Origin: an uncultured bacterium
GTDB taxonomy: Bacteria; Verrucomicrobiota; Kiritimatiellia; PWTM01
Direction of reading: 5' to 3'
Length of the DNA: 64,000 bases
NCBI GenBank assembly: GCA_937139365.1
Contig: CAKZPT010000091.1
Location: forward strand, 1,974 to 65,973
This document shows positions 7,789 to 59,698 of the stretch, piece by piece (the first letter of the stretch is position 1; every line of letters begins with the position of its first letter). The position numbers and the translations under genes were made by a program. The notes beneath the pieces were generated by a model, which saw only the letters and a program-made list of their open reading frames with translations, ran no database searches and was not told the DNA's origin.

Positions 7789-7817
7789 TTGACACGCCGA
7801 AGGTCGTGACATAGATT
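7789..7817 (+). promoter_or_regulatory. Sigma70-like promoter driving the riboswitch leader
   Basis: TTGACA at 7789-7794, a 17-nt spacer, then TAGATT at 7812-7817. It lies about 15 nt upstream of the riboswitch-like sequence. Confidence 0.45.
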
Positions 7818-7829
7818 GCGCCCGGTTCT

Positions 7830-8005
7830 TTGGGAACATGGCCCGGGCGAACGGAAGTCCGTGAGATTCGGACGCGGTCGCGCCGCTGTAACCGGATACG
7901 AGATCCCACGGCCACTGCCGGTCGGTTGTCCCTTGCGGGGCGATGCCGGTGGGAAGGCGGGATGCCAGGCCAAGCCGGTAGCCAGAAGACGAGTCCGGGC
8001 CATTG
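7830..8005 (+). promoter_or_regulatory. Putative cobalamin (B12) riboswitch aptamer in the 5' leader of the PEP-CTERM gene
   Basis: Contains the hallmark cobalamin-riboswitch elements in the canonical order. First, GGAAGTCCGTGAGATTCGGAC ... CGCCGCTGTAACCGG (compare GGGAA..GGTGnnAATCC..GCCACTGTAAnCGG). Second, GGCCACTG. Third, GGGAAGGCGG. Fourth, a B12-box-like AGCCAGAAGAC..TCCGGGCC. A downstream hairpin TCTCC(8114-8118)/GGAGA(8127-8131) can sequester the SD AGGAGA just before ATG 8139. Confidence 0.6.
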
Positions 8006-8138
8006 CGGTGGATCGCCCCGCGGAGGGCGGATCGGCCGGCCGCGCCCGTCGCGCGGCGGCGCCCATGCCCGGGCGCTGCGTCGTCCAGGCTCTCCCCGAG
8101 CGATTGCGCCGCGTCTCCCGCGAATAGGAGATCGCATC

Positions 8139-8972
8139 ATGATCGCTCAGCGTGTGGCGGCCTGCGTTGCGGCCGGCCTGGTGTGTGCGGTGGGCTCGAC
8201 ACGGGTGTCGGGGGCGGTGATCGGATTCGAGGAGTACGGTCTGCCGCCGGCGTCCGCGGCCCCCTACACGGGTGGGTTCACCATCGGCGCCGCCCATTTC
8301 GCCAACACGTTCTCCGTCTGGGGCGCCTACACGAGCTGGAACGGCTTCGCCGTTTCGACGATGACTGACACCTCCACGCCGGGGCACGTGAACCAGTTCT
8401 CGTGCATCGCCGGCCACGGCGCGGGCGGCAGTCCGGCGTATGCAGTCGGCTACGACGACCACTGGAGCATCGGCCCGGATATGGTGGTCACGTTTCCGGA
8501 CGACGTCCAGTTGTTGAGCCTGCAGGTGAACAACACGACGTACGCCTACCTGAGCATGAGGGACGGAGATGCTTTCGCCAAAAAATTCGGTGGCCCGAGC
8601 GGGACCGATCCGGACTGGTTCCTACTGCGGCTTCAGGCGTTCGACGCGGCGAACGCCCTGTTGGGCACCATTGACTTCTACCTGGCCGACTACCGCTTTC
8701 CCGATCCGGCGGACGACTACATCGTAGCTACCTGGACGCCGATCGACCTGACGGCCTTTGGCTCCACGGTGCGGCGATTGGAGATGACGCTAGACTCGAG
8801 CGACGTCGGTCCGTGGGGCGTGAACACGCCGACCTACGTGGCGGTGGACAATCTCCAGTATATCCCCGAGCCGGCGGCGGCGGGGCTGGCGGTGCTGGGC
8901 GCGGCCGCGGCGGCGCTTCTCCGCCGGCGGCTGGCCGCGGCGGTCGCAGAGGCGGTGGATGGAGCGGAATAA
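8139..8972 (+). CDS. PEP-CTERM-anchored secreted protein; the globular domain resembles the DUF4465 / BtuH-like surface-protein family (family assignment from memory, not searched)
   Basis: Signal peptide MIAQRVAACVAAGLVCAVGS. The C-terminal PEP-CTERM sorting signal is PEPAAAGLAVLGAAAAALLRRR. ATG 8139 is preceded by the SD AGGAGA. It lies immediately downstream of the riboswitch-like leader. Stop codon TAA. Confidence 0.7.
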   Translation: MIAQRVAACVAAGLVCAVGSTRVSGAVIGFEEYGLPPASAAPYTGGFTIGAAHFANTFSVWGAYTSWNGFAVSTMTDTSTPGHVNQFSCIAGHGAGGSPAYAVGYDDHWSIGPDMVVTFPDDVQLLSLQVNNTTYAYLSMRDGDAFAKKFGGPSGTDPDWFLLRLQAFDAANALLGTIDFYLADYRFPDPADDYIVATWTPIDLTAFGSTVRRLEMTLDSSDVGPWGVNTPTYVAVDNLQYIPEPAAAGLAVLGAAAAALLRRRLAAAVAEAVDGAE

Positions 8973-9717
8973 TCGCGCCGGGGCGACGTTGGTCGAGACC
9001 CTGGCCGTCGTCGCGGTCATTGCGGCGACGCTGGCCTTGTTGGCCCCCGGGCTGCGCGCCGCGCGGGACGGCGCGTTGAGGGCGGCCTGCGCCTCCAACC
9101 TCCGCCAAGTTCACATGGCTTGGACCGCGTATCTGGCGGATCACGAAGGCCGGTTTTTCCCGTTTCGCGAGGACGTCGCCGGCGGCGTGTTGTGGTACTG
9201 GGGTTTCGAGCCCGGGGGAGGCGGGCCGGAGGGCGACCGTCCGCTGGACAAGAGCCGCGCGCGGCTGGCGCCGTACCTCGACCATGGCGCGGCGGAAATC
9301 TGTCCGACGCTGCCGTTGCGCGCCCCCTATTTCAAACGCAAATTTCAGATCGCAAGCTACGGATACGGCCTGAACGGCTATCTGCTCGACGGATTGCCGG
9401 GAACGGCCCGGATGGGAGTGATGCTGCTGCAGGACGTCCAACGGCCGGCGGAGACGATCGCCTGGGGCGACTGCATCCAAATCAATACGTGGCAGGCGCC
9501 CGCCTCGCCCGAACGGCCGATGCTGGAGGAGTGGTACGTCCTCGACAATTTCCCGCCGCCCCATTTCCATTTCCGCCACGGGCGGCGCGCGAACGTGACG
9601 ATGGTGGATGGCAGCCTGCGGACCTTCGAGCCCCATTCGCTGGATCCTCGCTGCGACGGCCGGGCCGGCTATATCGATCCGCCGAGGGAAGAGCGATGGC
9701 TGCTGACCCGAAAGTGA
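8959..9717 (+). CDS. Prepilin-type N-terminal cleavage/methylation domain protein with DUF1559 (H-X9-DG) domain
   Basis: N-terminus GATLVETLAVVAVIAATLALLAP is pseudopilin-like. The C-terminal motif is HGRRANVTMVDGS, i.e. H-X9-DG. The gene overlaps the 3' end of the PEP-CTERM gene by 14 bp, so it is probably co-transcribed. Confidence 0.7.
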   Translation: MERNNRAGATLVETLAVVAVIAATLALLAPGLRAARDGALRAACASNLRQVHMAWTAYLADHEGRFFPFREDVAGGVLWYWGFEPGGGGPEGDRPLDKSRARLAPYLDHGAAEICPTLPLRAPYFKRKFQIASYGYGLNGYLLDGLPGTARMGVMLLQDVQRPAETIAWGDCIQINTWQAPASPERPMLEEWYVLDNFPPPHFHFRHGRRANVTMVDGSLRTFEPHSLDPRCDGRAGYIDPPREERWLLTRK

Positions 9718-9758
9718 GCCGCCGCCGCGCGTGAACTTCGGGCCTCCGGCCGGCTATA

Positions 9759-10610
9759 GTGGGGCCGATGCGGATCCGAATCGAGAGCGCGCGAAACGAG
9801 CGGGTGAAACTGGCGGTCCGGCTCCGGGATCGCCGTGCTCGCGACGAAGAAGGCCTGACGTTGATCGAAGGTTACCGCGAAAACCTCCGCGCCCTCGAGG
9901 CCGGGGTCCGGCCGGCCGCGTTCTTTTTCTGCCGGGACCTGTTCCTTGGCTCGAACGAGGACGACCTCTTGCGGCGGGCAGCGGCCGCCGGGGCCGACCT
10001 GCTCGACTGCGCGGAGCCGGTGTTCCGTCGAATATCCTATCGCGACCGTCCCGACGGGCTTCTCTCGATCGCGCCGATTGTCCGGCGCACCTTGGCCGAC
10101 CTGATCCTACCAGCCGCGCCGTTGCTGCTGGTGGTCGAGAGCGTGGAGAAACCGGGCAACCTTGGGACGATGCTGCGCAGCGCGGACGCGGCGGGGGCGG
10201 ACGCGGTGGTGATGTGCGATCCGCGGACCGACCTGTACAACCCGAACACCGTCCGGGCGAGCCTCGGCACGCTGTTCACCGTGCCGGTTACGGTCGCTTC
10301 CAGCCCGGAGGCGCTCTCGTGGTTGCGGGCGAGGAAGGTGCGCATCCTCGCCGGAACGCCGTCGGCGGAGCGGCTGCACTTCGAGTGCGACATGACCGGG
10401 CCGGTCGCCATCGCGGTCGGCGCCGAGCAATATGGCCTGAGCGCCCTGTGGATGGGGGCGGCGGACGAACGGGTACGCATCCCGATGCTGGGCCGCTGCG
10501 ACTCCCTGAACGTCGCGTCGGCGGCGACGCTGCTGCTCTACGAGGCGGTCCGGCAGCGGTGGCCGTCGCGTCAGGATTCCACGACGTCCGGCCCGCCGTC
10601 GAGCGCCTGA
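9759..10610 (+). CDS. TrmH/SpoU family RNA 2'-O-methyltransferase
   Basis: SPOUT core motifs are present (VVESVEKPGNLGTMLRSADAAGADAVV ... IAVGAEQYGLS ... RIPMLGRCDSLNVASAATLLLYE). Confidence 0.75.
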   Translation: MGPMRIRIESARNERVKLAVRLRDRRARDEEGLTLIEGYRENLRALEAGVRPAAFFFCRDLFLGSNEDDLLRRAAAAGADLLDCAEPVFRRISYRDRPDGLLSIAPIVRRTLADLILPAAPLLLVVESVEKPGNLGTMLRSADAAGADAVVMCDPRTDLYNPNTVRASLGTLFTVPVTVASSPEALSWLRARKVRILAGTPSAERLHFECDMTGPVAIAVGAEQYGLSALWMGAADERVRIPMLGRCDSLNVASAATLLLYEAVRQRWPSRQDSTTSGPPSSA

Positions 10611-12559
10611 CGGACCGCGAAGAGCAGTCCGGCGCGGGTGAAAGGCTTGGAGATCACCGGCACGCGGGCCCGCTCGGAGACGGTCGCGAACGGTTCGTGC
10701 GCGTAGCCGGTCATGCACATGGCGCGCAGCTCGGGACGGAGCTTCAACATCCGGTCGATCAGCTCAGGCCCCGAGAGGCCCGGCATGATGATGTCGGTGA
10801 GCACCAAGTCGAACCGCGATGGCTCCCGTTCGAACGCGTGCAGCGCCTCGATGCCGTTGGACGCCTCGACCACCTCGTAGCCGCCGGCCTTCAGCATCCG
10901 GCCGGCGAGGTTCAGGACGCCCCGCTCGTCGTCCACCACGAGGATGGTTTCGGTTCCGCCCCGCACCGTTGCGGAGCGGTCGGGGGCGGCGATGGGCACG
11001 GTGTCGGGCTGGTAGGGGAAGTAGAGCGTGAACACCGTCCCCCCCTCGGGTCGCGCGGCGACCTCACACCCGCCGCCAAAGGCCAGCGCAATGGACCGGA
11101 CCACGGCCAGCGCCATTCCGGTGCCTTTTTCGCCGGGGCGACGATAGAAGGGCTCGAAGGCGTGGGCGAGGTCCTCCTGGGTCGGCGTCGGCCCGTTGTC
11201 CTCGACCTGCAGGCGCACCAACGCCCCCTCGGGCAGGCCGGGCCGCGTCCGGACGAACTCCGCGTTGACGACGACGACGTCGGTGGATAGCTGGAGGCGT
11301 CCGTGCGGCGGCAGCACGTCCCGTGCGCGGATCGCAAGGTTCATCACCGCCTGGCTCAGGCGGCCGGGATCGCCGACGATGATGCAGGGCTGTTCGTCGA
11401 GCAGCGTGACCAGCTCGATGTCCTTGCCCATCGTCCGGCGCAGCAGGCGGTCCATGTCGCGGACGACCTCGTTGACGTCCATCGGGACCCGCTCGCCCTC
11501 GCTGGAGCGTCCAAACGTCTGAAGCTGGCGCACCAGCGTTTCGGCTCGCCGGGCCGCCTGCATCATTTCTGCGATGTCGTTTCGCGCGGTTTCGGGGATG
11601 CCGGGGTCGTGCTCCAGCAGTTGGCCGTAGCCGAGAATGGCCGTGAGCATGTTGTTGAAGTCGTGGGCGATGCCGGCCGACAGACGGCCGATCGTCTCCA
11701 TTTTTTGGAGTTCGGCGAGGCGTTCGCGGCTGGCGTTCAGCTCCTCCTCCGCTCGGCGGCGGTCGGTCAGGTCCCGGATGTGCAGGATCGCCGCCATCTG
11801 TCCCTCGGCGCCGATGCGGCTGGCGCGAATCTCCACCTCGATCGCCCGACCCTCGGCGCCGTACAGCCAACGGTCGCGGCCGCTCCGATCGCCCTGAAAC
11901 CACTGCTTGAGGTCCTGCCGGAGCTCGGCCGTGCGGTCGGGCGGCGTCAGCTCCAGCAGGGTTCGCCCTAGCAGTGTGTCCCGGCGATGGCCAGTCAACG
12001 CCGTGGCGGCGGGGTTGGCTTCGAGAATAGTTCCGTCGGATCCCACAACGACGATGGCGTCGGGGGAGTTTTCCACCAGCAGGCGATAGCGCTCCTCCAT
12101 CGCCCAAAGATCGCTGGTGCGCTTGCGGAGGACCGTTTGAAGCGCCCGCTGGCGGCGCAGGGCGTCCGATCGCCGGCGGAGGCAGCGAACCAAGGCGATG
12201 ACGACGGTCTCGAACGATGCCGGTTCGCCCTCGTCGAGAACCACCTCCGCACCCGCCGCCACGAGCGCCCGGCGTTGTTCGTCGGAAACTGGACCTTTGG
12301 ACGCGACCACCACCGCCGGCCCGAGGGTGGCTGGATCACTCCGTGCCTGGCGGCACAACTCCGCCACCGCCGGGTCGTCGGGCCGGGCGAACGCAACGAC
12401 CACGTCCGGCGCGTCGTCGCCCGTTACGCGCGGTCCGGCGGCCGACGGCGAGGGCACCGCGTCCACCCGGCAATCGCCCAATTCACCGGCAATCCTTCCG
12501 CGAAACCGCGAAAGAACATCGCCGGGGGCGCCAGCCACGAGAATGTGGCCATTTTTCAT
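10571..12559 (-). CDS. Hybrid sensor histidine kinase / response regulator: N-terminal pseudo-receiver, PAS, HisKA, HATPase_c, C-terminal REC
   Basis: H-box is RLSAGIAHDFNNMLTAILGY. G-boxes GTGMALAVV and GGTVFTLYFP are present. The C-terminal receiver reads ILVVDDERGVLNL...DLVLTDIIMPGLSG. Confidence 0.8.
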   Translation of the reverse strand: MKNGHILVAGAPGDVLSRFRGRIAGELGDCRVDAVPSPSAAGPRVTGDDAPDVVVAFARPDDPAVAELCRQARSDPATLGPAVVVASKGPVSDEQRRALVAAGAEVVLDEGEPASFETVVIALVRCLRRRSDALRRQRALQTVLRKRTSDLWAMEERYRLLVENSPDAIVVVGSDGTILEANPAATALTGHRRDTLLGRTLLELTPPDRTAELRQDLKQWFQGDRSGRDRWLYGAEGRAIEVEIRASRIGAEGQMAAILHIRDLTDRRRAEEELNASRERLAELQKMETIGRLSAGIAHDFNNMLTAILGYGQLLEHDPGIPETARNDIAEMMQAARRAETLVRQLQTFGRSSEGERVPMDVNEVVRDMDRLLRRTMGKDIELVTLLDEQPCIIVGDPGRLSQAVMNLAIRARDVLPPHGRLQLSTDVVVVNAEFVRTRPGLPEGALVRLQVEDNGPTPTQEDLAHAFEPFYRRPGEKGTGMALAVVRSIALAFGGGCEVAARPEGGTVFTLYFPYQPDTVPIAAPDRSATVRGGTETILVVDDERGVLNLAGRMLKAGGYEVVEASNGIEALHAFEREPSRFDLVLTDIIMPGLSGPELIDRMLKLRPELRAMCMTGYAHEPFATVSERARVPVISKPFTRAGLLFAVRQALDGGPDVVES

Positions 12560-12606
12560 ACGGGCTTATTGGACACTATACCGTCGGCGCCGCCCCTGCA
12601 ATCCCT

Positions 12607-13551
12607 TTATTTGCCGGCATGGCCATCCTCGAGCATCCGCGTGCCGTGGGGGTCCATGGAGGTCACCCAGCTTCGGGAGGCGATGCCCATTGCGTTGAAG
12701 GTCAGCACCATCTGCTGCTCGATCGCGCGGGCCTTCCCGGGGTTGTCCGTGATCGCGAAGACGGTTGGGCCGGAGCCGGAGATGGCCATGCCGTCTGCCC
12801 CGGCCTTGAGGGCGTTCTGTTTGACCTGGTCGAAGCCTTTGATCAGGCGCGCCCGCACCGGCTCAATGACGACGTCGTGCAGGCTGCGCGCAAAAAGGGA
12901 ATAGTCGTTCTTGGCGAACGCGGCGGTGATCAGCGCCGTGTTGGCCATGTTGGCGACGAAGGCGCTCATCGGGACCGTGGCCGGCAGGATGCGCCGCGCG
13001 TCGCGGGTCAATACGGTGATGGACGGCGTGACCAGGACGATGCGCAGCCGACGGACGATCCCGATGCGCGTTACGTCGAGCGGGACGCAGCATCGCGTCA
13101 GCGTGGCGCCGCCGAGGAGCGCGGGGGCGGTGTTGTCGGCGAAGAACCCGCCCGACACCTCCGCCTCCGCCTGGGTTGCGGCGAGGATTAACTGTTCGGT
13201 GCTCAGATGCCGGCCGTAGAGCCAGTTGGCCGCGAAGGCGCCAGCGGCCGCCGAGGCGGCGCTGGAGCCGAGGCCTGAGCCGGCGGGAAGCCCCTTGTGG
13301 ATACGCAAGTCGAGCCCCCCTGTCTCGCCGAGGATTTTCAACACGTTGGCGGCGGCCAGCGAGGCGGTGTTGCGGGAGGGATCGGACGGCAACGGGGTGG
13401 GGGAGCGGATTTCGAGAATCCGGATGCCCCGGCGTCGCCGGCGGGCCCAGACGACGTCGCCGAGGCCCTTTACCGCCATGCCCAGCACATCGAAGCCGGG
13501 CCCGATGTTGCCGATGGTGGCCGGCGAAAACACCCGGAACCATCCGCTCAT
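12607..13551 (-). CDS. thrB: Homoserine kinase
   Basis: GHMP kinase motif (PAGSGLGSSAASAAAGAFAAN). The start is at MSGWFRVFSPATIGNIGPGFD (ATG 13549-13551). It overlaps the thrC stop by 4 bp. Confidence 0.8.
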   Translation of the reverse strand: MSGWFRVFSPATIGNIGPGFDVLGMAVKGLGDVVWARRRRRGIRILEIRSPTPLPSDPSRNTASLAAANVLKILGETGGLDLRIHKGLPAGSGLGSSAASAAAGAFAANWLYGRHLSTEQLILAATQAEAEVSGGFFADNTAPALLGGATLTRCCVPLDVTRIGIVRRLRIVLVTPSITVLTRDARRILPATVPMSAFVANMANTALITAAFAKNDYSLFARSLHDVVIEPVRARLIKGFDQVKQNALKAGADGMAISGSGPTVFAITDNPGKARAIEQQMVLTFNAMGIASRSWVTSMDPHGTRMLEDGHAGK

Positions 13552-14924
13552 GGTTCCCTCGCAAGCCGCCGGTGGAGCGCCTCGTAGTCGGGGGCCAGCG
13601 GCTCCACCGCGGCAGTTCGTCCCCCCAGCCGCTCGAACGAAGGCGGCTGCAGCGGGGCGAAGCCCAGTTCGCGTTCCATCACTTCGGGAAACTTCGCCGG
13701 ATGCGCAGTCTCCAGGCAGATGGCGACTTCGCGTCCGCGGCCGGCACGCTCGAGCGCTTCGACGCCGACGGCGCCGTGCGGTTCCAGCAGCACGCCCCGC
13801 TCGTGCCACGCGCGTCGGATCCGCTCGACGGTCGCGGCGTCGTCGACCGAGACCGATTCCAGGCGGGCCCGCATCGCGTCGAGGTCGGGCGCCCGCTCCA
13901 CGCGGCCCTCCCGGGTGAGACGCCCTCCGTACCAGTCGAAGTACCGCGCGAGGTTGCTCGGATTACCAACGTTCATCGCGTTGGACAGGCACGCGCGGGA
14001 CGGCGAGAGCGGCTCGTAGCGGCCGGTCGCCAGAAACCGCGGAAACTCGTCGTTCGCGTTCACTGCCAGGATCAGCCGCGCCACGGGCAGCCCCATCCTG
14101 CGGGCCAGCTCGCACCCGAAGGAGTTGCCGAAGTTGCCCGACGGCACCGAAAAGGTCACCGGCTCCCCTGCGCGGGCCGTCCGCAGCCACGCGTACACAT
14201 AGTACACCGCCTGCGGCAGGATCCGGCCGATGTTGATCGAGTTGGCCGACGTCAACCCGTGGCCGGCCAGCCGCGGGTCAAGAAACGCCTCCTTGACCAG
14301 CGACTGACAAAGATCGAACGTCCCGTCCACCGACAGCGCGGTCACGTTGTCGCCGATGTGGTCGAGCTGAAATTTCTGAATCCGGCTGACCTCGGCGGCG
14401 GGATAGAGCAGAAACACGCGAAATCCCTCGAGCCCTCGGAACGCCTCGCCCACGGCGCTTCCGGTGTCGCCCGAGGTTGCCACCAACACGGTGCGCCGAC
14501 GGCCCGGCGGACGCAGGGCTGCCATCATCCGGGCCATCCAGCGGGCTGCGAAATCTTTGAACGACGCCGTCGGCCCGCGGTCGAGCCGCAGGAGCCACAC
14601 CCCCTCCTCATAGGCCTCGAGCGGCACCTCGAAGTCGTACGCGTCGGCGCAGAGGCTCCGGAAGGCCGCGCGCCCGATGCCGCAGTCCTCGACAAAGGGC
14701 CACAGAACATAGTCGGCGATCTCCGCGTAGGAAGCGCCGCGGAGCCGCTCAAGGTCATCGGGGGTCAGCCGCGGCAACCGTTCGGGTAGGTAGAGACCAC
14801 CGTCCGGGGCCAGCCCCCGTTCGAGGGCTTCAGCGAACGACACGGCCGCCGGATCACCCCCCGGCCGTTGCCGGTTTGTGCTGATGTAACGGATCGCGTT
14901 CACGACCGAAAGGATATACATCAA
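13548..14924 (-). CDS. thrC: Threonine synthase
   Basis: PLP-enzyme fold with ThrC-type motifs (GPTASFKDFAARWMA ... SGDTGSAVGEAF). Sits immediately upstream of thrB in an operon. Confidence 0.8.
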   Translation of the reverse strand: MMYILSVVNAIRYISTNRQRPGGDPAAVSFAEALERGLAPDGGLYLPERLPRLTPDDLERLRGASYAEIADYVLWPFVEDCGIGRAAFRSLCADAYDFEVPLEAYEEGVWLLRLDRGPTASFKDFAARWMARMMAALRPPGRRRTVLVATSGDTGSAVGEAFRGLEGFRVFLLYPAAEVSRIQKFQLDHIGDNVTALSVDGTFDLCQSLVKEAFLDPRLAGHGLTSANSINIGRILPQAVYYVYAWLRTARAGEPVTFSVPSGNFGNSFGCELARRMGLPVARLILAVNANDEFPRFLATGRYEPLSPSRACLSNAMNVGNPSNLARYFDWYGGRLTREGRVERAPDLDAMRARLESVSVDDAATVERIRRAWHERGVLLEPHGAVGVEALERAGRGREVAICLETAHPAKFPEVMERELGFAPLQPPSFERLGGRTAAVEPLAPDYEALHRRLAREP

Positions 14925-14952
14925 CCCGTTTTCCGGGCGTGGCGCAAGCGGG

Positions 14953-15026
14953 TGGGCCCGGCAGGACTCGAACCTGCGACCAGAAGATTATGAGTCTCCC
15001 GCTCTGACCGCCTGAGCTACGGGCCC
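14953..15026 (-). tRNA. tRNA with anticodon CAT: tRNA-Met (elongator-type anticodon stem) or tRNA-Ile2 (lysidine)
   Basis: The reverse complement folds as a cloverleaf: acceptor GGGCCCG/CGGGCCC, D-arm GCTC..GAGC, anticodon loop CUCAUAA, T-loop GGTTCGAGTCC, discriminator A. CCA is not encoded. The three G-C pairs typical of an initiator anticodon stem are absent. Confidence 0.75.
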
Positions 15027-15095
15027 CTCGGCGCTGCGACACCTAGTCTAGCATGCTGCCACCGGCGCGGAGAAACTCTCGGGGCGCCAACCGGA

Positions 15096-18000
15096 TCAGG
15101 GACGGCCCGCCTCCGCGACCTCGCGGGCGACGATGGGCGCAACGATGCGGAAGCCGACGTTGAACACGCGCCGCCATTCGGGATACGCCCACCGGGCGGC
15201 TGCGCTCACCCGGCGGGGCGGGTCGAAGAACGAACCGCTGCGCACGACCCTTGGCCCGAGTGCGGCAGGGTCGTTTCGGCCGTCCTCGTCAATCCATGGG
15301 TAGGGGGCGTATCGCGATAGAGTCCACTCCGCCGCGTTGCCGATCATGTCGGCCAAACCGAGGCGGTCGGTCCCGGACACGCCCACGGGGGCGGTCACGA
15401 CATGGCCGTCGTCGTGGCTGGCGGGCGCAGCCCCCTCGCCGTCCACCCAGAGGTGCTCTACCCCGCCGGTGATCAAGGGCTGGCCCGCCAGCGGTGCGAG
15501 GAAGGCGGCGTCGGCAAGGTTCGGAAGAATGCTGACGGGCGGCTCTGCCGCCGCGCGGGCCGCGTACTCCCACTGGGCCTCGGTCGGCAGTTCGAAACGC
15601 TCCCCCGTGATGTCGCTGAGGCGCCGGCAGAATTCCCGGGCGTCGAGCCACGACACCCGGCCGACCCACTAGTCGTCGCCGTCCAGCGAAAGACCATCGC
15701 CCTCCGGTTGCGCATGGCGCCGGAGATACCGACCGCTCGAGTGTCCCGGCATCAGCCGCCGGAACTGGCGGTTCGAGATCTCGGTCCGCGACATCCAAAA
15801 CGGCGCCACGCGCACCCGGCAGGGCGGGGCCGTGTCGTTCGGGCCCGCGTCGGTCCCCATCGTGAACTCGCCCCCGGGGATCTCGACCAGTTCGATCCGC
15901 ACACCGTCCCCGAGGTCGAGGACGCGATCCCTGCCAGGCTGGGGATGCAGCGGTGAAACGGGGGGCGGCGGCTGAATCCCGGTGGCGGCGCTGGGGGAAA
16001 AAGGCGGGGGCCGGTACGGCCGGGTTTCCGGTATGGCCTCGGGATCGTCGGGCGGCCCGCCCGCCATCGCCCACATCTCCATCCGGCGCCGATGCATTGG
16101 GGCCACAAGCGGCGAGATTTCGCCCCACGTGCCGAAAAAGGGGGCGTTGAGATCCGCCCAGGTAACGAGCCGTTCCCACCCCTCCCGGTCCAGAGCCACG
16201 CCGCGGTGGCCAGAGCGAAGCATTTGAACGAGCGGGCTGGTGTCGACGTGGTATTCGCCGGGCCCGAGGAGTCCGACCCCGTCCTCGATGCCCACCCGGC
16301 GGACACGGGCCACGAGGGCATCGTAGGCGGGGGAATGGCGGATGCGGCCGCCCGTCGCCTCGCGCATGGCCGCCGGCATGCGATCGATGGCGAGTTTCGA
16401 TAGCGGATGGCAGCGTACTCCGGCGCTCCGCCGCGGAGGTCGGGCAGCGAGGAGTCGATGCCGTTGTGACAGCGGACACAGTGGTGGTCGAGCACTGGCT
16501 GAACCTCGCGGGAGAACGAGAAGCCGCGCGGCGGTCCCAGCCAGGGCTGTGGGGCCGCCGGCGACCGGCCGAGCGCGTGCCCAGCCCTGGCGGGCGGGGC
16601 ATGGTGGGCCGGCTCGTGGCGGCCGACGCAGGAGACGTGTTCGCCGGGCATGGCCGTGTAGCAGCTCCGCATGATCTGCACGGCCGCGCCGTCGGCATCG
16701 ATGGCCTGGAAGGCGAGCGGCGTGCGCGCCGGCACGCGGAAGAACGCCGAGCCATCGTTCTCGACGGGCACGGTTCCGATGATGCGCATGGCATCCCACG
16801 GACCCCCGCGGCCGATCAGGTCGGGGCCGGCCGTGTCGAGGTAGCCGAAGTGGAAGGCAACCAGCCGTAGCGCACGGACCGTGCCGCGGGGCACGCCGGC
16901 GAGACCGGGCCCCTGGTACACGTCGTGGATGTAGACGATGGCGTCCGTTTGCGACTCGTCGACCCGGTCCGGAATCGCCGGCGGCCTCGGGCGGGGCACG
17001 AGGACGATCGGCTCCAAAAGAGCGTCACCGGGCATCTCGAAGAACGGGACAACGTTGTCGTGGACGTCGGCCACGGCCAGCGCCCAGTTCGAGGTCGGCG
17101 ACGCCTTCACCGAGACCGGCATCGTGGTCTCGTCCACCGGTCACGGAGTAAGGAACCTCGGCCAGGCGCCGCCGACGAGGGGTTGTCGGCGATGCGGCGT
17201 TCCACGGGCTGTCCGCAGCCCGAGATCCGGGGAATTCCACCCCCCTCGGCGGCGCCGAGCCGCGTGTCCTCGACCGCCAGCCATCCCATGCGGTGGGGCC
17301 CGCGGTAGCCGCTGAGAATCGCCGCAATCCGGCCCGGCGCGCCGGGCATCTCGCGCGGGAAATAGAGCGCGTTTGGGAACCACGAATTGCTGCCGTACAG
17401 GGCCCGCTGTCCGGTGCCGTCGGGGTTCATCGCCGTCAACAGCCGCAAGGAATATGTGGTTGATGCCGGCGTATTCCCAGCGGCTGTACACGACCTGTCC
17501 GTTCGAGAGGACGGCGGGGTGGAGGTCGTGGTCTGGTCGAAGCAAAGCTGCCGCAAGCCACTTCCATCGGCGTTCATGCGGTAGAGGACGCAGACGCGCT
17601 TGAGGCCGTGCCAGCAGGGCACGGACTGAAACGTCGCCGTGGCGCCGAACACGATGCGGCCGTCGGGCAGCCAACACGGATCGAAGGCATGCACCTCGTG
17701 CGGCAGACGCGAGACCGTCCGGACGCCGGTTCCGTCCGCACCGATCTCGCACACCTCCCAGCCGTTGGGCGTGGAGCGGGTGAACAACAGGCTATGGCCG
17801 TCCCAATCTGGATCCACCTCGCCGACGTAACCGCCCTCTGGTGGCGCATACAGGGGGGCCCACCGCCATCCGACCGGTGAGCGCTCGAGACGGCCGATCT
17901 CATTGTCGTAGCCGGTCCGTTCGAGGGAACTGTTGCACTCGTGGTTGGACGGCAGGCTGATCTCGCGTCCGTCGTCGCCGCTCCAGGAGATCCGTTGGTC

Positions 18001-18366
18001 GGACCCGCTGCGGCGGCGCCGTTCCTGGACAAGGTTCTTTGGGCTGCGGCGAACCGCCAGCACGGGCATGCCGCGCAGCCGCGGATGGTCCAGTAAGGAT
18101 TTCCCGGGCGAGCGCCGCGGCGTGGCCGGCGAGGGCCGACGCCTCGCCGGCATCGGTCGTCAAGCGGCGGCCGGCCACTCCAGCGCGGCCCGATGCTCCG
18201 GGGCGCGCGGATATTCGTCGCCGTATCGCCTCTCCAGGTCGTCCACCGTCCGCCGCAGGGCGGAGATTCGGTGCCGGAGCCACACATCGCCTTCGGCGGG
18301 ACCGCCCCCTGCGCCGGCGACGGCCACAAGCGTGGCCGCAACCACGGTCTGGCAGATCGGGTGCAT
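15096..18366 (-). pseudogene. Disrupted gene for a roughly 1100-aa secreted multi-domain protein. Domains in order: signal peptide, PD40-like beta-propeller, HzsA-middle-like domain with a CXXCH heme-c motif, C-terminal FGE-sulfatase (SUMF1-like) domain.
   Basis: Homology is continuous but jumps between reading frames. The signal-peptide-like ORF is at 18160-18366. PD40 repeats (DGRIVF, NADGSG) are at 17620-18153. A shift occurs near 17600-17750. The middle domain ...VQPVLDHHCVRCHNG (CVRCH = CXXCH) lies in frame 15752-17137. A shift near 16350 leads into frame 15669-16799 carrying FGE motifs (RIELVEIPGGEFTMGTD). An in-frame TAG at 15669-15671 interrupts the conserved FGE core (..DGDD*WVGRVSWLDAREFC...RLPTEAQWEYAARA), which then continues to 15096. 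Confidence 0.55.
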
Positions 18367-18385
18367 GCGACGTCAACCTATGCGG

Positions 18386-19192
18386 GGGCCATCCCGGCCG
18401 TCAACCGGATCTCTGACCCGCTTGCGGCGCGGTGAGCGGTTGGGCACCATCTCCCCCCCCGTGAGCTCTGCCAGGCCACCGGTTGTTGCCACCGCGGCGG
18501 CGCTTGCATTCACCGTCGTCGTCGGGGAGTTCGAGGCCTTGGAGGCCCGTCGGCAGATGCTTGCGCGGGCTGTGGACGGGGCGCCGACCGAGGGTCAACG
18601 CCGGCAATTGAGGGACGAGCTCTCGGAGCTGAACCGGCGGTGGCTGGCCACGCCGTCGTGGACAGGCGGGAAAACGAACGCGACGGTCCAAAAGGGCGAT
18701 ACGCTGGACCGCATTGCCCGTCGGCTGGGCGTCACGATTGAGCTGCTCCGATGGTCCAACGGCCTGACCAACGATACGATCCGGCCCGGCATGACCCTGA
18801 CGGTGCCCGTCGGCCCGGTGGAGCTGGAGGTGGACAAGTCCGACAACCTCCTGACCGTGCGGCTCGCGGGCCGATTCCTCCTCGAGTACTCGGTGGCCAC
18901 CGGCCGAGACAACTGCACTCCGACGGGGGTGTTCACGATCGTGGACCGTGTCCGAGAGCCCACCTGGTGGAGACCGTCGGACGGACGGCCGATTCCGTAC
19001 GGCCATCCGGAGCATGAGCTGGGGACCCATTGGCTGGCATGGGACCTGAAAGGGTACGGCATCCACGGGACCAGTCGCCCCGAGACGATCGGGACGCAGG
19101 CCAGCCTAGGTTGCGTGCGGATGCGCAACGAGGACGTGGCCGAGGTGTTCGCGCTGTCGCCGGTCGGAACGCGAGTGACCGTCCGCGACTGA
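18386..19192 (+). CDS. LysM domain-containing L,D-transpeptidase (YkuD family)
   Basis: One TM helix (PPVVATAAALAFTVVVG). LysM motif (ATVQKGDTLDRIARRLGVTIELLRWSNGL). YkuD catalytic motif (HGT...ASLGCVRM). The start could also be ATG 18365; the ORF-track extension back to 17933 is Arg-rich antisense of the neighbouring gene. Confidence 0.7.
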   Translation, partial: GPSRPSTGSLTRLRRGERLGTISPPVSSARPPVVATAAALAFTVVVGEFEALEARRQMLARAVDGAPTEGQRRQLRDELSELNRRWLATPSWTGGKTNATVQKGDTLDRIARRLGVTIELLRWSNGLTNDTIRPGMTLTVPVGPVELEVDKSDNLLTVRLAGRFLLEYSVATGRDNCTPTGVFTIVDRVREPTWWRPSDGRPIPYGHPEHELGTHWLAWDLKGYGIHGTSRPETIGTQASLGCVRMRNEDVAEVFALSPVGTRVTVRD

Positions 19193-31848: not shown

Positions 31849-31906
31849 TCCGCGGCCGCCGCGCCGGCACCCGACCGAGCGGCCGGACGCAGGGGCCGCC
31901 ACCGCG

Positions 31907-33007
31907 GCGGGAGGCGGGAGCCGCCGAGGCCGGCCAACGTGGGCTGAAGATTGGTCATCGCCGTCATTTCGCCGCAGACGCAGCCGGCAGGAATGCGGCC
32001 GGGCCACCGAGGCAGCGTCGGCAACCGCACGCCGCCGTCCCGCGTGCATCCCTTCGCGCCGCGTAGCGGCCTGTTGGCCGCCCCCACGTTGATCGCGCCG
32101 CCGTTGTCGCTGGTGAGAATCACGAGGGTGCGATCCGCCAGGCCGGCGGCGACCAGTGCTTCCAACACGCGGCCGACGGCCGCATCCATCGCCGCGATCG
32201 TCGCGGAGTACATCGCGTGGTCGTGGGTCAGGCGCACGTCGCGTTCGCCGTCGCGTCCCCACCGAGAGATCAGCTCCAGCCGTGACGCTTTCTGCTCGAA
32301 ATGCCGGCGCCGGTCAGCCCGCGCCTAAAGGGGGCGTGGAAACGGAGTTGTAGGGCAGCTACGCCAAAAACGGTCGATTGCGGTACGCGCAAAATGAACC
32401 GCGCCGTCTCCTCCGCGAGCCGTGCCGTGAGATACTTGGCCGGTGGGCCGTCGGGGAGCCGGGGGATGTCGTAGGGCGAGAAGTACTTTCCGCCGCTGTA
32501 AGGGCCGCCCTGTTTCGTGCGGCCGAGGTTGCGATTCGAAGCCCTGGGTCCTCTAGCTATCATCCCTCGGGGCCCAGGTGCCATCTGCCCCCAAAGGCGT
32601 ATCCCCTCTGCTTCGACAGTTCGGTCCCCATCACCTCCTCGCGCGCGGGCCGCTCGGCATAAGGGGAAAACAGCCCGCGTGTTCCGGGCCCATGCGCCGA
32701 GTTGCGGAGCGCCGGGCTGATCGGAAATCCCCGTACGTTGCGGCCAGCAACCCGGCATCAGGTTGGCGCGGGCCGTCGAGCAGATGGGGCAAGTGGCATC
32801 GGCGACCGTGAACGGGATGCCCACCGCCGCCAGGCGCTCGGTGTTGGGGATCTCGTAGAAGTGGTCACCGAGGCAGACGGCATCCGTCGCCCCCAATCTT
32901 TCACGAGGCAGCCCCGAAAATTTGGTGGCGAGGGGGCGGAGACTGGCGGCAACGCCAGCGTGCCACAGCAACGGCGGCAAGCGCAGTGTGAAGACCTGCG
33001 ACGGCAC
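31907..33007 (-). pseudogene. Sulfatase remnant: N-terminal and middle regions in two reading frames; the C-terminus is missing (cut off by the end of the GT4 gene)
   Basis: Frame 32270-33007 carries the sulfatase N-terminal signature region with a degenerate active-site motif (ADATCPICSTARANLMPGCWPQRTG: C-S-T-A-R where C-S-P-S-R is expected). Frame 31907-32237 carries the middle region (HAMYSATIAAMDAAVGRVLEALVAAGLADRTLVILTSDNGG). No room is left for the C-terminal domain. Confidence 0.5.
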
Positions 33008-33061
33008 AGAGATCGTCGGGCGCGCAGCGGGTCGGCGCTTCGTTCGCGTGGCGGCGAAACC

Positions 33062-34363
33062 CTACCGCCGCCGCGGCCGGTTTGCACGGGCGGCCTTCCG
33101 TCGGCGAGGCACGCGTTCCGAAGCCCCGCTGCGCGGATTGAGCTGATCGAGAATGGCCTGCAGTCGGTGCCGGGCCTCGGCGGCCTCCGCGCCGCCCTCA
33201 CCGGGCGCCACCGCCTTTTGCGAAAACGGGGCGTCGCTCATGTCGAACAGCTCGCCGCTTTCCGTCAGTTTCCAGCGAGCGCTCCGCACGTACCAGCGGT
33301 CGCCGAGCTGCACGAAGACCCATTCCCTAGGCTGGCCCCGCTCGCCCTTGATTTGAGGGGCAAAGCTGCCGCCGTCGAGGACGGTGTTCACCGGGATCTT
33401 CGCCCCCGCGAGTTCGGCGAAGGTGGGGAAGAAATCCGTCAGGTCCACGAGGTCGTCGCAGGTGCGTCCGGCGGGCGCGACCCCCTTCCAGTTGACGATC
33501 AGCGGAACTCGAGCGCTTCCCTCGAGCATCGACCCCTTCTGCCCGTCGATCCTTCGGCCGTTCAGAAGGGAGTGGCCGGCGCCGAACCTCGCCGTGCCGT
33601 TGTCGGCGGTGAAGAGGATCAGGGTGTTTTCGCGCAGGCCGAGCCGGTCCAGCTCCTCCAGGAGGCGGCCGACCTTCTTGTCAAGGTAGATCATCATGTC
33701 CTCGTAGAAGTCCTTCGTCTCCGGGCGGCTGTCGGGCGTGCGGACGATGGGGCCGTGGATCAGGTGGGTCGAGTAGTAAAACAGGAACGGCCGGTCGCGA
33801 TGCCGGCGCAAGAAGTCGAGCGTGAACTCGAGGCAGGCGTCGGGGCCGTAGATCTCGTGATCGAAGGTGCGCGTTTCGCCGTTCACGGTGTAGCTCTTCA
33901 CCCAGAACCAACCGCCGGCGACGGGGTCGGTCAACCATTCGTCGAAGCCCCAGTCGCCCGGCGTCTCGCCCATCTGCCGCCATTTGCCGGCCATGCCGGT
34001 GACGTAGCCGGCGGCGCGTAGCGTCTTAGCAAACGAGGGCTCGTCGGCCGACTTCGGGTTGACGGCCGAGGGATTCGTATGGCCGCCGGTCCGAAAACCG
34101 TAGCGACCGGTGATCAGCGCGCACCGCGACGGCCCGCAAAGCGGCATCGCGAAACAATGGGTGAACTTCATGCCGGTCTCGGCCAGCCGGTCCAGGCTCG
34201 GTGTCTTGCCCCGGAACCGGTCGCTGCCGAAACATCCAACGCCGTCCAGCCCGAGGTCGTCGGCGAAGATCAGCAGAATATTGGGGCGGACGGGCACGTC
34301 CGCGGCGCATGCCGCCGCGACCAGCCCCGCCGCCGCCACGAGGCAACAACAAGCGCGGTTCAT
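33062..34363 (-). CDS. Sulfatase (arylsulfatase family)
   Basis: Signal peptide MNRACCCLVAAAGLVAAACAA. Metal-binding IFADDLG. Active-site signature CGPSRCALITGRYGFRTG (CxPxR for formylglycine). TADNG motif. Start at ATG 34361-34363. Stop codon TAG. Confidence 0.8.
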   Translation of the reverse strand: MNRACCCLVAAAGLVAAACAADVPVRPNILLIFADDLGLDGVGCFGSDRFRGKTPSLDRLAETGMKFTHCFAMPLCGPSRCALITGRYGFRTGGHTNPSAVNPKSADEPSFAKTLRAAGYVTGMAGKWRQMGETPGDWGFDEWLTDPVAGGWFWVKSYTVNGETRTFDHEIYGPDACLEFTLDFLRRHRDRPFLFYYSTHLIHGPIVRTPDSRPETKDFYEDMMIYLDKKVGRLLEELDRLGLRENTLILFTADNGTARFGAGHSLLNGRRIDGQKGSMLEGSARVPLIVNWKGVAPAGRTCDDLVDLTDFFPTFAELAGAKIPVNTVLDGGSFAPQIKGERGQPREWVFVQLGDRWYVRSARWKLTESGELFDMSDAPFSQKAVAPGEGGAEAAEARHRLQAILDQLNPRSGASERVPRRRKAARANRPRRR

Positions 34364-47239: not shown

Positions 47240-48367
47240 CTACGGATCCCGGACCGTCCAGTGCCGGCCGTCGGGACCGCGAATCACCGCGCCATCTCGC
47301 GTCCAGCGGACCACCGCGCCCGGCGCCAACGGCACCTTGCTCTCGCCGCCCGGCACGTCGATGACGAACTGGGGGATCGCCAGGCCGGTCAGCCGCCGCC
47401 GCATCATCGCCACGAGTCGGAGGGCGCGCCGGAGGGGGACGCGAAAATGCCCCGCCCCACGCACCGGATCGCAGTGCAGCAGGTAGTACGGGCGTACCCG
47501 GATCTCGACCAGGCCGCGGAAGAGATCCTCCAGCGTCCGGGCATCGTCGTTCACGCCGCGGAGCAGAACCGTTTGGTTGCCGACCGGCACGCCGGCGTCG
47601 ACGAGCCGGCGGCAGGCCTCCGCGGAGGCCGGCGTGATCTCGGCCGGGTGGTTAAAATGCGTGTTGAGCCAGACCGGATGGTGCCGCCGAAGCACCCGGC
47701 ACACCGACCGCGTGATCCGCGCCGGCAGCAAAACGGGCATCCGAGTGCCAATCCGTATCACGCGGACGGTCGGGACGGCGCGCAGCGCGCCGAGCAACTC
47801 ATCCAGCCGTCGGTCGGAGAGGCACAGCGGATCGCCGCCAGTGACGAGCGCCTCCCGGACCTCCGGGTGACGCCGCAGCCATTCGGCCGCCCGGGCCGCA
47901 TCCGCCGCCGCCAGCGTCGCGCCGTTCGCGTTCGTGACCAGTTCGTTGCGACGCGTGCAGTGCCGGCAGCGAACCGCGCACTCGCGCGTGGCGCACAGCG
48001 CCACGCGATCCGCATAGCGCCGGATCACTCCGGGCACGACCGTGTGGCCCTCCTCGTCGAACGGATCCGGCGGCAGGCCGCGGTGGCGAAGCTCCTCGCG
48101 CAGGGGGACGCACATGCGCACGATCGGGTCGCGCGGCGACCATTCGCGGATGAGCGACGCGTAATACGGCGTGACCGCCATCGGCCATCCCGAGGACTCC
48201 GGGTCCGCCGCCCAGGGGACCGGGCCGGCCTTTCCCAGCCATCGGGCCAATTCCTCAGGGGTGCGAAGCCGCGCCCTCATCTGGACCGGCCACGGCGCCC
48301 CCGGGCTGACCCGGCGGGGCGTCCGCGACATTGACCGGATACGGCCGGCGGCGGTCCGTCTGGTCAT
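47240..48367 (-). CDS. KamA-family radical-SAM aminomutase (lysine 2,3-aminomutase / EpmB-like)
   Basis: Radical-SAM cluster CAVRCRHCTRR (Cx3Cx2C). KamA-type core (VTGGDPL ... RIGTRMPVLLPARIT). Stop codon TAG. The exact start is uncertain. Confidence 0.7.
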   Translation of the reverse strand: MTRRTAAGRIRSMSRTPRRVSPGAPWPVQMRARLRTPEELARWLGKAGPVPWAADPESSGWPMAVTPYYASLIREWSPRDPIVRMCVPLREELRHRGLPPDPFDEEGHTVVPGVIRRYADRVALCATRECAVRCRHCTRRNELVTNANGATLAAADAARAAEWLRRHPEVREALVTGGDPLCLSDRRLDELLGALRAVPTVRVIRIGTRMPVLLPARITRSVCRVLRRHHPVWLNTHFNHPAEITPASAEACRRLVDAGVPVGNQTVLLRGVNDDARTLEDLFRGLVEIRVRPYYLLHCDPVRGAGHFRVPLRRALRLVAMMRRRLTGLAIPQFVIDVPGGESKVPLAPGAVVRWTRDGAVIRGPDGRHWTVRDP

Positions 48368-50011: not shown

Positions 50012-50148
50012 GGGCCCATCATGATACCTTCGCCGGGGCCGCGAAGCCAGCGGCAGTTTGACAACCGCCGTGCGGACTGGTCTATTGTCCGGTCGGAACG
50101 CGCGGCGGCGCCGGCCTGCGGGCCGGCGGCCGAACTGGCTCCCGACGT

Positions 50149-50224
<76 letters not shown>

Positions 50225-52459: not shown

Positions 52460-52470
52460 GCTACAGGCGC
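52394..52470 (-). tRNA. tRNA-Arg (CCG)
   Basis: The reverse complement is GCGCCTGTAGCTCAATTGGACAGAGCGTCAGCCTCCGGAGCTGAAGGTTCCGCGTTCGATTCGCGGCAGGCGCACCA. Anticodon loop CUCCGGA. The full cloverleaf forms. CCA is encoded. Confidence 0.8.
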
Positions 52471-55199: not shown

Positions 55200-55333
55200 A
55201 CGGGCTCCATTTGCACAAAATGACCCTTCGTTTGGATCCGGGCGACCTTGCATCGCCCAGCGAATCCCGGCGGCATGGGCGCGAAGGAACGGCTCCGGAC
55301 CGGCTCGGAAGGGTCGTTCGCGGGGAGCACGGG

Positions 55334-56597: not shown

Positions 56598-56627
56598 GGC
56601 GCGGCGGCCGGCCGGGAGGACGCGGAG

Positions 56628-57719: not shown

Positions 57720-57817
57720 CCGGCTTCGGGCCTGTCCAAACCTTGGAAGCTTTGGCCGGCCTTGGGTCCAAACCTTGGATGGCCGGCGCGGACAGAACGA
57801 CGAAAGGAGAGCGGACC

Positions 57818-59514: not shown

Positions 59515-59698
59515 GGGCTCGCTGAGGCTCTGCCATTCGCCCTCGCACAGTTGGTGGCCGCGGCGCCGGGGTTGCGCCGCAGTCCACCGCGAGAGGCCTC
59601 GCGCCGCGGCCTCGCTAGCCCACATCCATTCATCCCGTGCCGCTTGATTGCGCCTCCGCTTCGTTCGTAGGATTTCGCGCGCCGAGGATAACCAGGAG

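Follow-up and report, generated by a model that had tools for sequence, protein, structure and literature searches.

The locus at positions 15096-18366 of the window (the whole 64,000-nucleotide stretch of DNA analysed here) is very probably a fixed, non-functional pseudogene, judging from the lesions in its sequence and from the agreement among assemblies of the same organism. As such it is an ordinary one, derived from a common exported heme protein of PVC bacteria, and no new kind of protein. The first-pass annotation had described a single, multiply disrupted and inactivated gene with a propeller, a heme-c HZS_alpha region and an FGE-sulfatase domain, and our analysis supports that description.

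Using tblastn, we found that homology runs continuously for about 3.3 kb on the minus strand across three frames, as had been claimed, and belongs to one protein family from 15096 to 18366. The intact 1110-aa protein P0001, from the Kiritimatiellae MAG GCA_026417735.1, matches 18339-15099 in three frames through its residues 12-1104, with 59% identity over those residues (tblastn and frameshift-aware alignment). The features of the locus are listed here in the direction of reading.

15096..18366, minus strand: entire pseudogene of about 1,090 codons, colinear with intact family members of about 1,100 aa that combine an HzsA-like module with an FGE-fold domain
18178..18366, minus strand: segment A, with the start codon, the first helix and the hydrophobic, signal-peptide-like N-terminus MHPICQTVVAATLVAVAGAG
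18177..18180, minus strand: frameshift 1, one base missing, site ambiguous within about 10 nt
18093..18097, minus strand: frameshift 2, an inserted base (CTT A CTG GAC)
17534..18093, minus strand: segment C, first part of the beta-propeller
17533..17535, minus strand: frameshift 3, one G missing, CAG GAC CAC becoming CAGACCAC
17443..17449, minus strand: frameshift 4, one extra T, CTG CGG becoming CTTGCGG, 90 nt past frameshift 3
17179..17181, minus strand: frameshift 5, a C-run shortened by one C, AAC CCC CTC becoming AACCCCTC
17141..17143, minus strand: in-frame TGA, at a site flanked by two near-invariant prolines and occupied in the family by Tyr, Phe or Trp
16613..16885, minus strand: HZS_alpha (PF18582), Pfam E 6.7e-25, profile positions 1-98 of 98
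16616..16630, minus strand: first heme motif, destroyed (CVGRH, TGC to CGC); C-x-G-C-H in 99% of the family
16466..16480, minus strand: CVRCH, the second CXXCH motif, intact; the one noted in the first-pass annotation
16399..16405, minus strand: frameshift 6, one C missing, ATC CCG becoming ATCCG, also in contigs L004, L006 and L086 (see below)
16125..16142, minus strand: PFFGTW, against P-C-H-G-T-W in the family, whose Cys and His are each 97% conserved
15141..15893, minus strand: FGE-sulfatase (PF03781) fold domain, with the TAG inside it, Pfam E 1.7e-35, profile positions 4-254 of 255
15669..15671, minus strand: in-frame TAG, Gln in 118 of 120 family members (98%)
15096..15098, minus strand: the gene's original stop codon
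14951-15026: tRNA-Met, downstream of the gene's original stop

The domain scan recovered HZS_alpha and FGE-sulfatase by Pfam, as the first-pass annotation had expected; the propeller that it had assigned to PD40 stood as a fold, by structure, but not as that family. In the N-terminal 318 aa no PD40 or other Pfam or NCBIfam family was found (Pfam threshold E<=0.01). On the structure predicted for the intact homologue P0001, which has a helical hairpin at its N-terminus, the ancestral N-terminal region is a beta-propeller at the level of fold.

Altogether the gene carries six single-base frameshifts (four 1-nt deletions and two 1-nt insertions) and two in-frame stops. The frameshift-aware alignment places the frame switches at 18177/18178, 18093/18094, 17533/17534, 17443/17444, 17179/17180 and 16399/16400, and an independent Viterbi segmentation based on codon usage returned the same six sites. 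The earlier count of at least four frame hops therefore holds as a lower bound, with junctions (18160, 17600-17750, 17140 and 16350) that were roughly right and imprecise. Frameshift 2, 84 nt past frameshift 1, brings back the frame in which segment A is read. The TGA, overlooked in that earlier reading, lies 37 nt downstream of the switch at 17179/17180, while the TAG had been placed correctly inside the FGE core, immediately 5' of WVGRVSWLDAREFC. It is part of a cluster of four substitutions within 12 nt, and the residue that follows it is Trp in the window copy versus Pro in 120 of 120 members. All of the lesions lie outside long homopolymers. The largest possible product of the locus is about 460 aa, and none of its fragments includes an entire functional module.

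The window copy also deviates at 19 of the 239 alignment columns that are at least 97% conserved, whereas family members deviate at a median of 2 and at most 14; losses on this scale fit neutral decay rather than fresh error. Two CXXCH motifs are present in 119 of 120 members and only CVRCH is left in the window copy, a shortfall that is consistent with the decay of a former family member. Some of the deviant conserved residues could be older than the inactivation.

Whether the lesions are real was judged by agreement among assemblies, probably all short-read. Three independent metagenome assemblies differ from the window by SNPs elsewhere and show zero indels across the parts of the gene that they cover. 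Over 15000-18500, ENA contig k141_102797 (L006) matches the window base for base; it has 20 SNPs and one indel elsewhere, and carries all eight lesions. JGI contig Ga0209721_1006736 (L086) spans 13731-18101 without a gap and has seven of them (five frameshifts and both stops), along with three SNPs within the gene; a strain SNP in this contig changes an invariant Thr to Met. JGI contig Ga0116210_1003970 (L004), which spans 9180-16660 without a gap, has one frameshift and the TAG. An uninterrupted reading frame, which the first-pass annotation had named as the observation that would speak against inactivation, was not seen; the interruptions recur in independent assemblies.

It is unlikely, though it deserves more weight than the alternatives that follow, that the loss is fixed in the sampled strains only and that intact alleles or a paralogue elsewhere in the species or genome preserve the function. 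The data consist of one 64-kb window and a few contigs, and the family is often multi-copy in PVC genomes, with three loci (L008, L013 and L069) in one Verrucomicrobia MAG. However, a search of 5.8 billion protein clusters gave no intact sequence above 59% identity, the metagenome contig scan yielded no intact close orthologue (its only close match, L086, bears the lesions), and the lesions recur in all four versions, the window among them, wherever these cover the gene. Relatives recovered by the genome contig scan reach at most 45% identity, and it was by matches to ThrC that the organism was given its approximate placement. Exact-protein look-ups of guessed ORFs at 17107-18153, 15752-17137 and 57572-59314 gave no match, probably owing to wrong start codons or alleles; those that started from intact genes nearby did give matches.

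We regard it as very improbable that the gene has been split into fragments that work as smaller proteins, for example a 320-aa propeller piece or 236- and 186-aa halves of the FGE fold. Gene callers in the other assemblies do divide the locus into four ORFs, of 68, 320, 236 and 186 aa, and codon bias is kept in every segment. Yet the breaks cut through folded domains (propeller blades and the FGE-fold core). Between the 320-aa and 236-aa ORFs, a stretch of about 730 nt with the HZS_alpha domain and the heme motifs belongs to no called ORF. The signal peptide is kept only by the first, 68-aa piece, and invariant residues are gone throughout. Still less credible is an assembly or sequencing artefact, with erroneous indels in what would really be an intact gene. 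An error-prone assembly would indeed yield something like six 1-nt indels within 3.3 kb, and one of the six sits in a short C-run, but the recurrence of the lesions in contigs that each carry strain-level SNPs elsewhere, the long intact ORFs across about 45 kb of neighbouring coding sequence, and, at near-invariant sites, two nonsense and 17 missense changes that cannot be indel errors have already largely refuted this explanation. Programmed recoding, by which ribosomal frameshifting and stop-codon read-through would give a full-length protein, can practically be dismissed: the two compensating frameshift pairs (84 and 90 nt apart) and the stop-free read-through frame of the second would suit it, but the ribosome would have to shift six times, both forwards and backwards, and read through TGA as well as TAG, the read-through frame of the first pair contains a TGA, none of the 120 listed homologues depends on recoding, and key cofactor residues are missing regardless.

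The ancestral gene encoded an exported protein of about 1,100 aa belonging to a widespread PVC-superphylum family. In a Kiritimatiellia-like lineage it gained its six 1-nt indels (four deletions and two insertions) and its two nonsense codons, and many normally invariant residues changed as well. Replacement of about 7% of the near-invariant residues would correspond to roughly 3% neutral nucleotide divergence since the loss of constraint. Such divergence predicts about 2-3 stops and a few indels, and the observed lesions agree; stops arise from 2.6% of possible substitutions, which fits two stops among roughly 100 substitutions. The codon bias, still legible in every segment, suggests that the loss was evolutionarily recent. 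The pseudogene's neighbours in the window are the tRNA-Met, thrC, thrB and a LysM-YkuD gene, and neighbouring genes form intact ORFs of 1306, 1184, 849 and 808 aa; the damage is thus specific to this gene.

The family to which the pseudogene belongs is large. A database search with a threshold of E<=1e-10 gave 1,436 proteins; the best 120 of these are 1045-1206 aa long, show 47-59% identity and each contain both PF18582 and PF03781. The domain combination had been called unusual in the first-pass annotation; its presence at similar length in all 120 best matches indicates that it is not. Members are named 'SUMF1/EgtB/PvdO family nonheme iron enzyme' by NCBI and occur in Planctomycetes (including Thermoguttaceae), Verrucomicrobia (including Akkermansia, whose loci match at 35-39% identity), Kiritimatiellae and Lentisphaerae; examples besides P0001 are P0052 from Thermostilla marina and P0058 from Thermopirellula anaerolimosa. 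They share a signal-peptide-like N-terminus, a helical hairpin, an HzsA-like module (a beta-propeller, the HZS_alpha middle domain and a region with two CXXCH c-type heme motifs), a proline-rich linker and a C-terminal FGE-fold domain. The window copy is colinear with them over the full length, with the same size, domain order and N-terminal signal-like segment, and differs by its six frameshifts and two stops and by the loss of one CXXCH, the conserved C-H dyad and a further 17 near-invariant residues. In the literature searched we found no description of the fusion family, as a family or under a Pfam accession, nor of the samples. With well over 1,000 proteins in PVC bacteria, Akkermansia muciniphila among them, it is a large unstudied family that joins an HzsA-like heme module to a non-canonical FGE-fold domain, and it is relevant to those gut and marine PVC bacteria that are rich in sulfatases.

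The best structural match of the P0001 model is the hydrazine synthase alpha subunit, HzsA, of Kuenenia stuttgartiensis (PDB 5C2V, chains A and D; Foldseek E 7e-25), with a TM score of 0.59-0.60 normalised to HzsA over about 840 aligned columns. The match takes in the propeller, the middle domain and the C-terminal heme region that have been described for HzsA (PMC12758564), and in this predicted structure the first 800 or so residues resemble the entire subunit. A sequence-profile match (E 4e-13) agrees with the likeness. The family differs from HzsA, however, in being only 15-16% identical to it, in scoring 27 bits against the cut-off of 800 for the NCBIfam hydrazine_alpha equivalog, and in having the extra FGE-fold domain. 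No beta- or gamma-subunit genes are evident beside the window gene, P0001, P0052, P0002 or the Akkermansia copy. HzsA homologues outside anammox bacteria have been reported to be without key catalytic residues, and the family bears on the debate over the origin of anammox HZS (PMC12758564).

The C-terminal domain has the fold of the formylglycine-generating enzyme (SUMF1/FGE; PDB 1Y1E, 2Q17, 6MUJ): that of P0001 matches human FGE at Foldseek E 3e-13 and TM about 0.64, with matches including 1Y1E and 5SSY. Canonical FGEs, in contrast, are without a heme module. When the FGE of S. coelicolor is aligned, its 'LCHDSYC' falls on 'FFDPPPLC' of P0001, so that the first catalytic Cys is replaced by Asp. 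FFDPP is found in the family consensus and the window copy alike, and in the latter, which reads FFDPPRRV, both of the catalytic, copper-binding cysteines of FGE (CxxxxC) are absent. The replacement of the first catalytic Cys, examined in P0001 and the same in the consensus and the window copy, does not support the redox-linked sulfatase-maturation function suggested in the first-pass annotation; an 'FGE-sulfatase' match should not be taken for a sulfatase-maturation enzyme. The best or near-best PDB sequence matches of this domain (E 5e-29 to 5e-27) are PorK/GldK, the type IX secretion ring lipoprotein (9MZU, 9OTS), and PvdO (5HHA), which have the FGE fold without FGE chemistry. Their NCBIfam models score only 69 bits against a cut-off of 350 (GldK) and 37 bits against 500 (PvdO), their architecture is different, and the T9SS or pyoverdine context is absent from the family. 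TolB, a PD40 beta-propeller, resembles the N-terminal propeller in fold (Foldseek E 1e-10, TM about 0.5), but with 12% identity and no Pfam PD40 match, and HzsA is a far better match.

The neighbourhood comparison revealed no conserved operon around the family genes, only nearby sulfatases, which in two loci are no more than two genes away from the homologue. These are uninformative because the host genomes are sulfatase-rich. A sulfite-reductase and ABC-transporter cluster is found near the Akkermansia homologue. It is a tentative and rather doubtful suggestion that the family may be a periplasmic redox enzyme for the use of sulfated glycans or sulfate esters, with which the co-loss of a sulfatase paralogue, rhamnose catabolism genes and a glycosidase would fit; its role may then be, for instance, a modification step that is coupled to electron transfer and differs from those of Cu-FGE and the radical-SAM anSME.

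Taken alone, the pseudogene carries little weight: annotation pipelines split it into four ORFs called 'hypothetical' or 'FGE-sulfatase'. Its loss would belong to a broader erosion of glycan and sulfate-ester utilisation genes within the same 64 kb, where five or six further pseudogenes were seen (a sulfatase, RhaA, RhaT, a URO-D-like gene, a DUF5060 glycosidase and one unverified). Six to seven of the roughly 47 genes in the window are thus fixed pseudogenes, mostly for carbohydrate or sulfate-ester utilisation, a concentration that would be the signature of ongoing niche narrowing in this uncultured Kiritimatiellia-like organism, which is represented in at least three further metagenome assemblies. 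The sulfatase at 33062-34363, by comparison, is intact, as first reported: an independent contig has a called PF00884 gene of 433 aa at the corresponding position.

Read on the minus strand, positions 18366-15096 of the window (G+C ~70%) encode one protein that is legible across three frames jointly and in none of them alone. The stitched translation matched 1,436 proteins in the database (E<=1e-10). The top match (P0001; 59% identity, 98% of the query covered) is a Kiritimatiellae MAG protein to which NCBI gives the name 'SUMF1/EgtB/PvdO family nonheme iron enzyme'; in tblastn its residues 12-1104 were covered by the three window frames. Pfam detected HZS_alpha (PF18582, E 6.7e-25) and FGE-sulfatase (PF03781, E 1.7e-35) in the translated pieces. 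The first-pass annotation had called the domain combination unusual, a view that does not hold, as each of the best 120 of the 1,436 matches (1045-1206 aa) carries both PF18582 and PF03781. A tRNA-Met gene (CAT; 14951-15026, minus strand) follows the pseudogene's stop codon at a distance of 70 nt.

We mapped the lesions with a frameshift-aware dynamic-programming alignment to P0001, and then inspected the DNA site by site. The multiple disruption noted earlier could thereby be sharpened to six frame changes and two in-frame stops, all given by the alignment, with the base change at each frameshift suggested by the DNA inspection:

~18180, minus strand: frameshift 1, one base missing
~18097, minus strand: frameshift 2, one base extra
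17535, minus strand: frameshift 3, G missing (CAG GAC to CAGAC)
17449, minus strand: frameshift 4, T extra (CTG CGG to CTTGCGG)
17181, minus strand: frameshift 5, C missing from a C-run
16405, minus strand: frameshift 6, C missing
17141-17143, minus strand: in-frame stop TGA
15669-15671, minus strand: in-frame stop TAG

A Viterbi model of codon usage, fitted to the window's long ORFs and blind to homology, switched frame at the same six places (18177/78, 18093/94, 17533/34, 17443/44, 17179/80 and 16399/400). The TGA occupies a position that is Tyr, Phe or Trp in the family, flanked by two near-invariant prolines, and the TAG replaces a residue that is Gln in 118 of 120 family members.

Such lesions might be assembly artefacts. 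This was examined in three independent assemblies of the same organism, standing in for read mapping and retrieved by exact-sequence look-up of intact neighbouring proteins, and every junction they cover was reproduced. An ENA contig (L006; ERZ27245459, k141_102797) aligns to window positions 3549-24921 with 20 SNPs and one indel, all outside 15000-18500. Two JGI contigs align ungapped: L086 (3300025104, Ga0209721_1006736) to 13731-18101 with five SNPs, three inside the gene, and L004 (3300010288, Ga0116210_1003970) to 9180-16660. The ORFs called at the locus in these assemblies are fragments of 68, 320, 236 and 186 aa, with none called over the HZS_alpha and heme region, and the same fragments stand as separate entries in NCBI, ENA, JGI and Logan. 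Since the independent assemblies agree and the surrounding genes have uninterrupted ORFs (1306, 1184, 849 and 808 aa), the damage is gene-specific and reproducible, and an assembly artefact is ruled out.

Two deletion-and-insertion pairs on the minus strand restore the frame, at 18094-18178 (84 nt apart) and 17444-17534 (90 nt apart), and reading through the second meets no stop. These pairs could be due to chance (p ~0.07 by a rough estimate), or could have been left by compensated frameshifts or by mutation at several sites in one event. Four substitutions also fall within 12 nt at the TAG (15660-15677, minus strand), where TAG TGG GTC GGC stands in place of the expected Q-P-V-V (e.g. CAG CCG GTC GTC); the residue beside the TAG is Trp, versus Pro in all 120 family members. 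This cluster, too, could reflect chance or a clustered multi-nucleotide mutation event. Neither observation changes the pseudogene verdict.

The substitutions point to neutral decay. When the window copy was aligned with 120 family members, it deviated at 19 of the 239 columns with conservation of at least 97% (family median 2, maximum 14). The first CXXCH motif (16616-16630) has lost its second cysteine (CVGCH to CVGRH), leaving the window copy with one such motif where 119 of 120 family members have at least two; also lost are the conserved Cys-His dyad (NAPCHGTW to NAPFFGTW), the His of SGYHGPH and the Gly of RGGSF. A SNP in L086 further changes the invariant Thr of GTW to Met. As a rough inference, an excess of ~6-7% in replacements at constrained residues corresponds to ~3% unconstrained nucleotide divergence, or ~100 substitutions; a stop arises from 2.6% of the substitutions possible in this gene, so some 2-3 stops would be expected, and two are seen. 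On the same rough estimate, the six indels amount to about one per 16 substitutions, a ratio commonly seen in bacterial pseudogenes. All segments still show codon bias, suggesting, again roughly, that the loss was relatively recent. The six frameshifts and two stops bear out the earlier claim of inactivation: the gene is a real pseudogene of an ordinary kind, from a PVC protein family that is common but uncharacterised, and several further pseudogenes lie in the same region of the genome.

To describe the ancestral protein we used an AlphaFold2 model of P0001 (28-sequence alignment; mean pLDDT 75.6, pTM 0.75). The model predicts an N-terminal helical hairpin, a large beta-rich region (~110-460), a beta-sandwich (~480-585), a helical heme-motif region (~600-780) and an FGE-fold domain set off by a disordered, proline-rich linker. 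In a Foldseek search of the PDB its first match was the hydrazine synthase alpha subunit (5C2V chains D and A; E 7e-25, TM 0.59-0.60 normalised to HzsA, ~840 alignment columns), followed by FGE structures (E ~3e-13, TM ~0.64) and TolB propellers (E 1e-10, TM ~0.5). Of the propeller proposed earlier, the PD40 assignment found no Pfam match in the translated pieces, while the TolB likeness reappears at this structural level. By these matches, the first ~800 residues resemble the entire HzsA subunit, beyond its middle domain; following Dietl et al. 2015, PMC12758564 divides HzsA into a propeller of six blades, a middle domain that carries heme alpha-I and a C-terminal domain that carries heme alpha-II. 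PMC12758564 also describes distant HzsA homologues without key catalytic residues in non-anammox bacteria, and makes no mention of an FGE fusion. Hydrazine synthase itself was rejected: the NCBIfam equivalog reaches 27 bits where 800 are required, identity is ~15%, and neither the window locus nor any of the family loci examined (P0001, Thermostilla, Akkermansia and P0002, another family member) has a neighbouring beta/gamma partner gene.

By sequence, the C-terminal domain is nearest to PorK/GldK, FGE and PvdO. The catalytic LCHDSYC of Streptomyces FGE aligns with FFDPPPLC in the family, where the first copper-binding cysteine is Asp, and with FFDPPRRV in the window copy, which has neither cysteine. 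With this pair incomplete, the sulfatase-maturation (formylglycine-generating) role suggested by the first-pass annotation is not justified.

Full-length homologues occur in Thermoguttaceae, other Planctomycetes, Verrucomicrobia, Kiritimatiellae and Lentisphaerae. Those of Akkermansia muciniphila share 35-37% identity, and the Akkermansia locus L100 (PDYJ01000001.1) holds an intact 1,197-aa ORF with both domains at 9524-13117. Genes for a NIR_SIR sulfite or nitrite reductase and an ABC transporter lie 3-7 kb downstream of it on the opposite strand, a sulfatase lies two genes off at the P0001 and Thermostilla loci, and no relevant neighbour was seen at the P0002 locus. No neighbourhood is conserved across these four loci, and such neighbours are weak functional hints at best. 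Against its nearest relatives, of which the named ones are 'Verrucomicrobia bacterium A1' and Kiritimatiellae MAGs, the window ThrC shows 70-75% identity, indicating a PVC bacterium that is Kiritimatiellia-like and has no close sequenced relative.

Further broken genes emerged when the window was segmented with the codon model and read in six frames:

31900-33061, minus strand: sulfatase remnant beside the intact sulfatase 33062-34363, with N- and C-terminal homology in two frames
48364-50194, minus strand: putative broken gene, candidate frameshift near 48770 joining two ORFs
51440-52400, plus strand: URO-D-like gene split in two, the window ORF stopping at profile position 261 of 346
55330-56600, plus strand: L-rhamnose isomerase (RhaA), frameshifts at ~55687 and ~56144
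56630-57719, plus strand: RhaT rhamnose transporter, in-frame stop near the start (RQWA*ESYWL), inside the Pfam match
59670-61475, plus strand: DUF5060 and apiosidase-like/collagen-binding-domain glycosidase gene, two in-frame stops and one frameshift (~60545)

The active-site CxPxR of the sulfatase remnant is degraded to CSTAR, and no gene is called there in the independent contigs L001 and L002. Stitched, RhaA matches Pfam RhaA positions 3-417 of 417 (E 5e-193). The breaks in RhaA, RhaT and the URO-D-like gene are found again in three independent contigs: RhaA is three ORFs in L168, L169 and L170, gene callers elsewhere give just a 307-aa remainder of RhaT, and the URO-D-like gene forms ORFs of 198 and 97 aa in the ENA contig L168. 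The rhamnulokinase downstream of RhaT (57818-59314) is intact. The 48364-50194 protein has no Pfam match, and its gene is probably broken by a single frameshift, judging from the reading frames. In total, about 6-7 of the ~47 protein-coding loci are pseudogenes, concentrated in glycan and sulfate-ester utilisation. The HzsA-like pseudogene alone matters little; what has moderate side value is its protein family and the way genes have decayed in this lineage.

Elsewhere the window carries tRNA-Ala (GGC; 50149-50224, plus strand) and tRNA-Arg (CCG; 52394-52470, minus strand) genes, and a cobalamin riboswitch (Rfam RF00174, 68 bits; 7807-8012, plus strand) upstream of a DUF4465 gene (8130-8958), after which comes a gene for a protein with a prepilin-type N-terminal domain.
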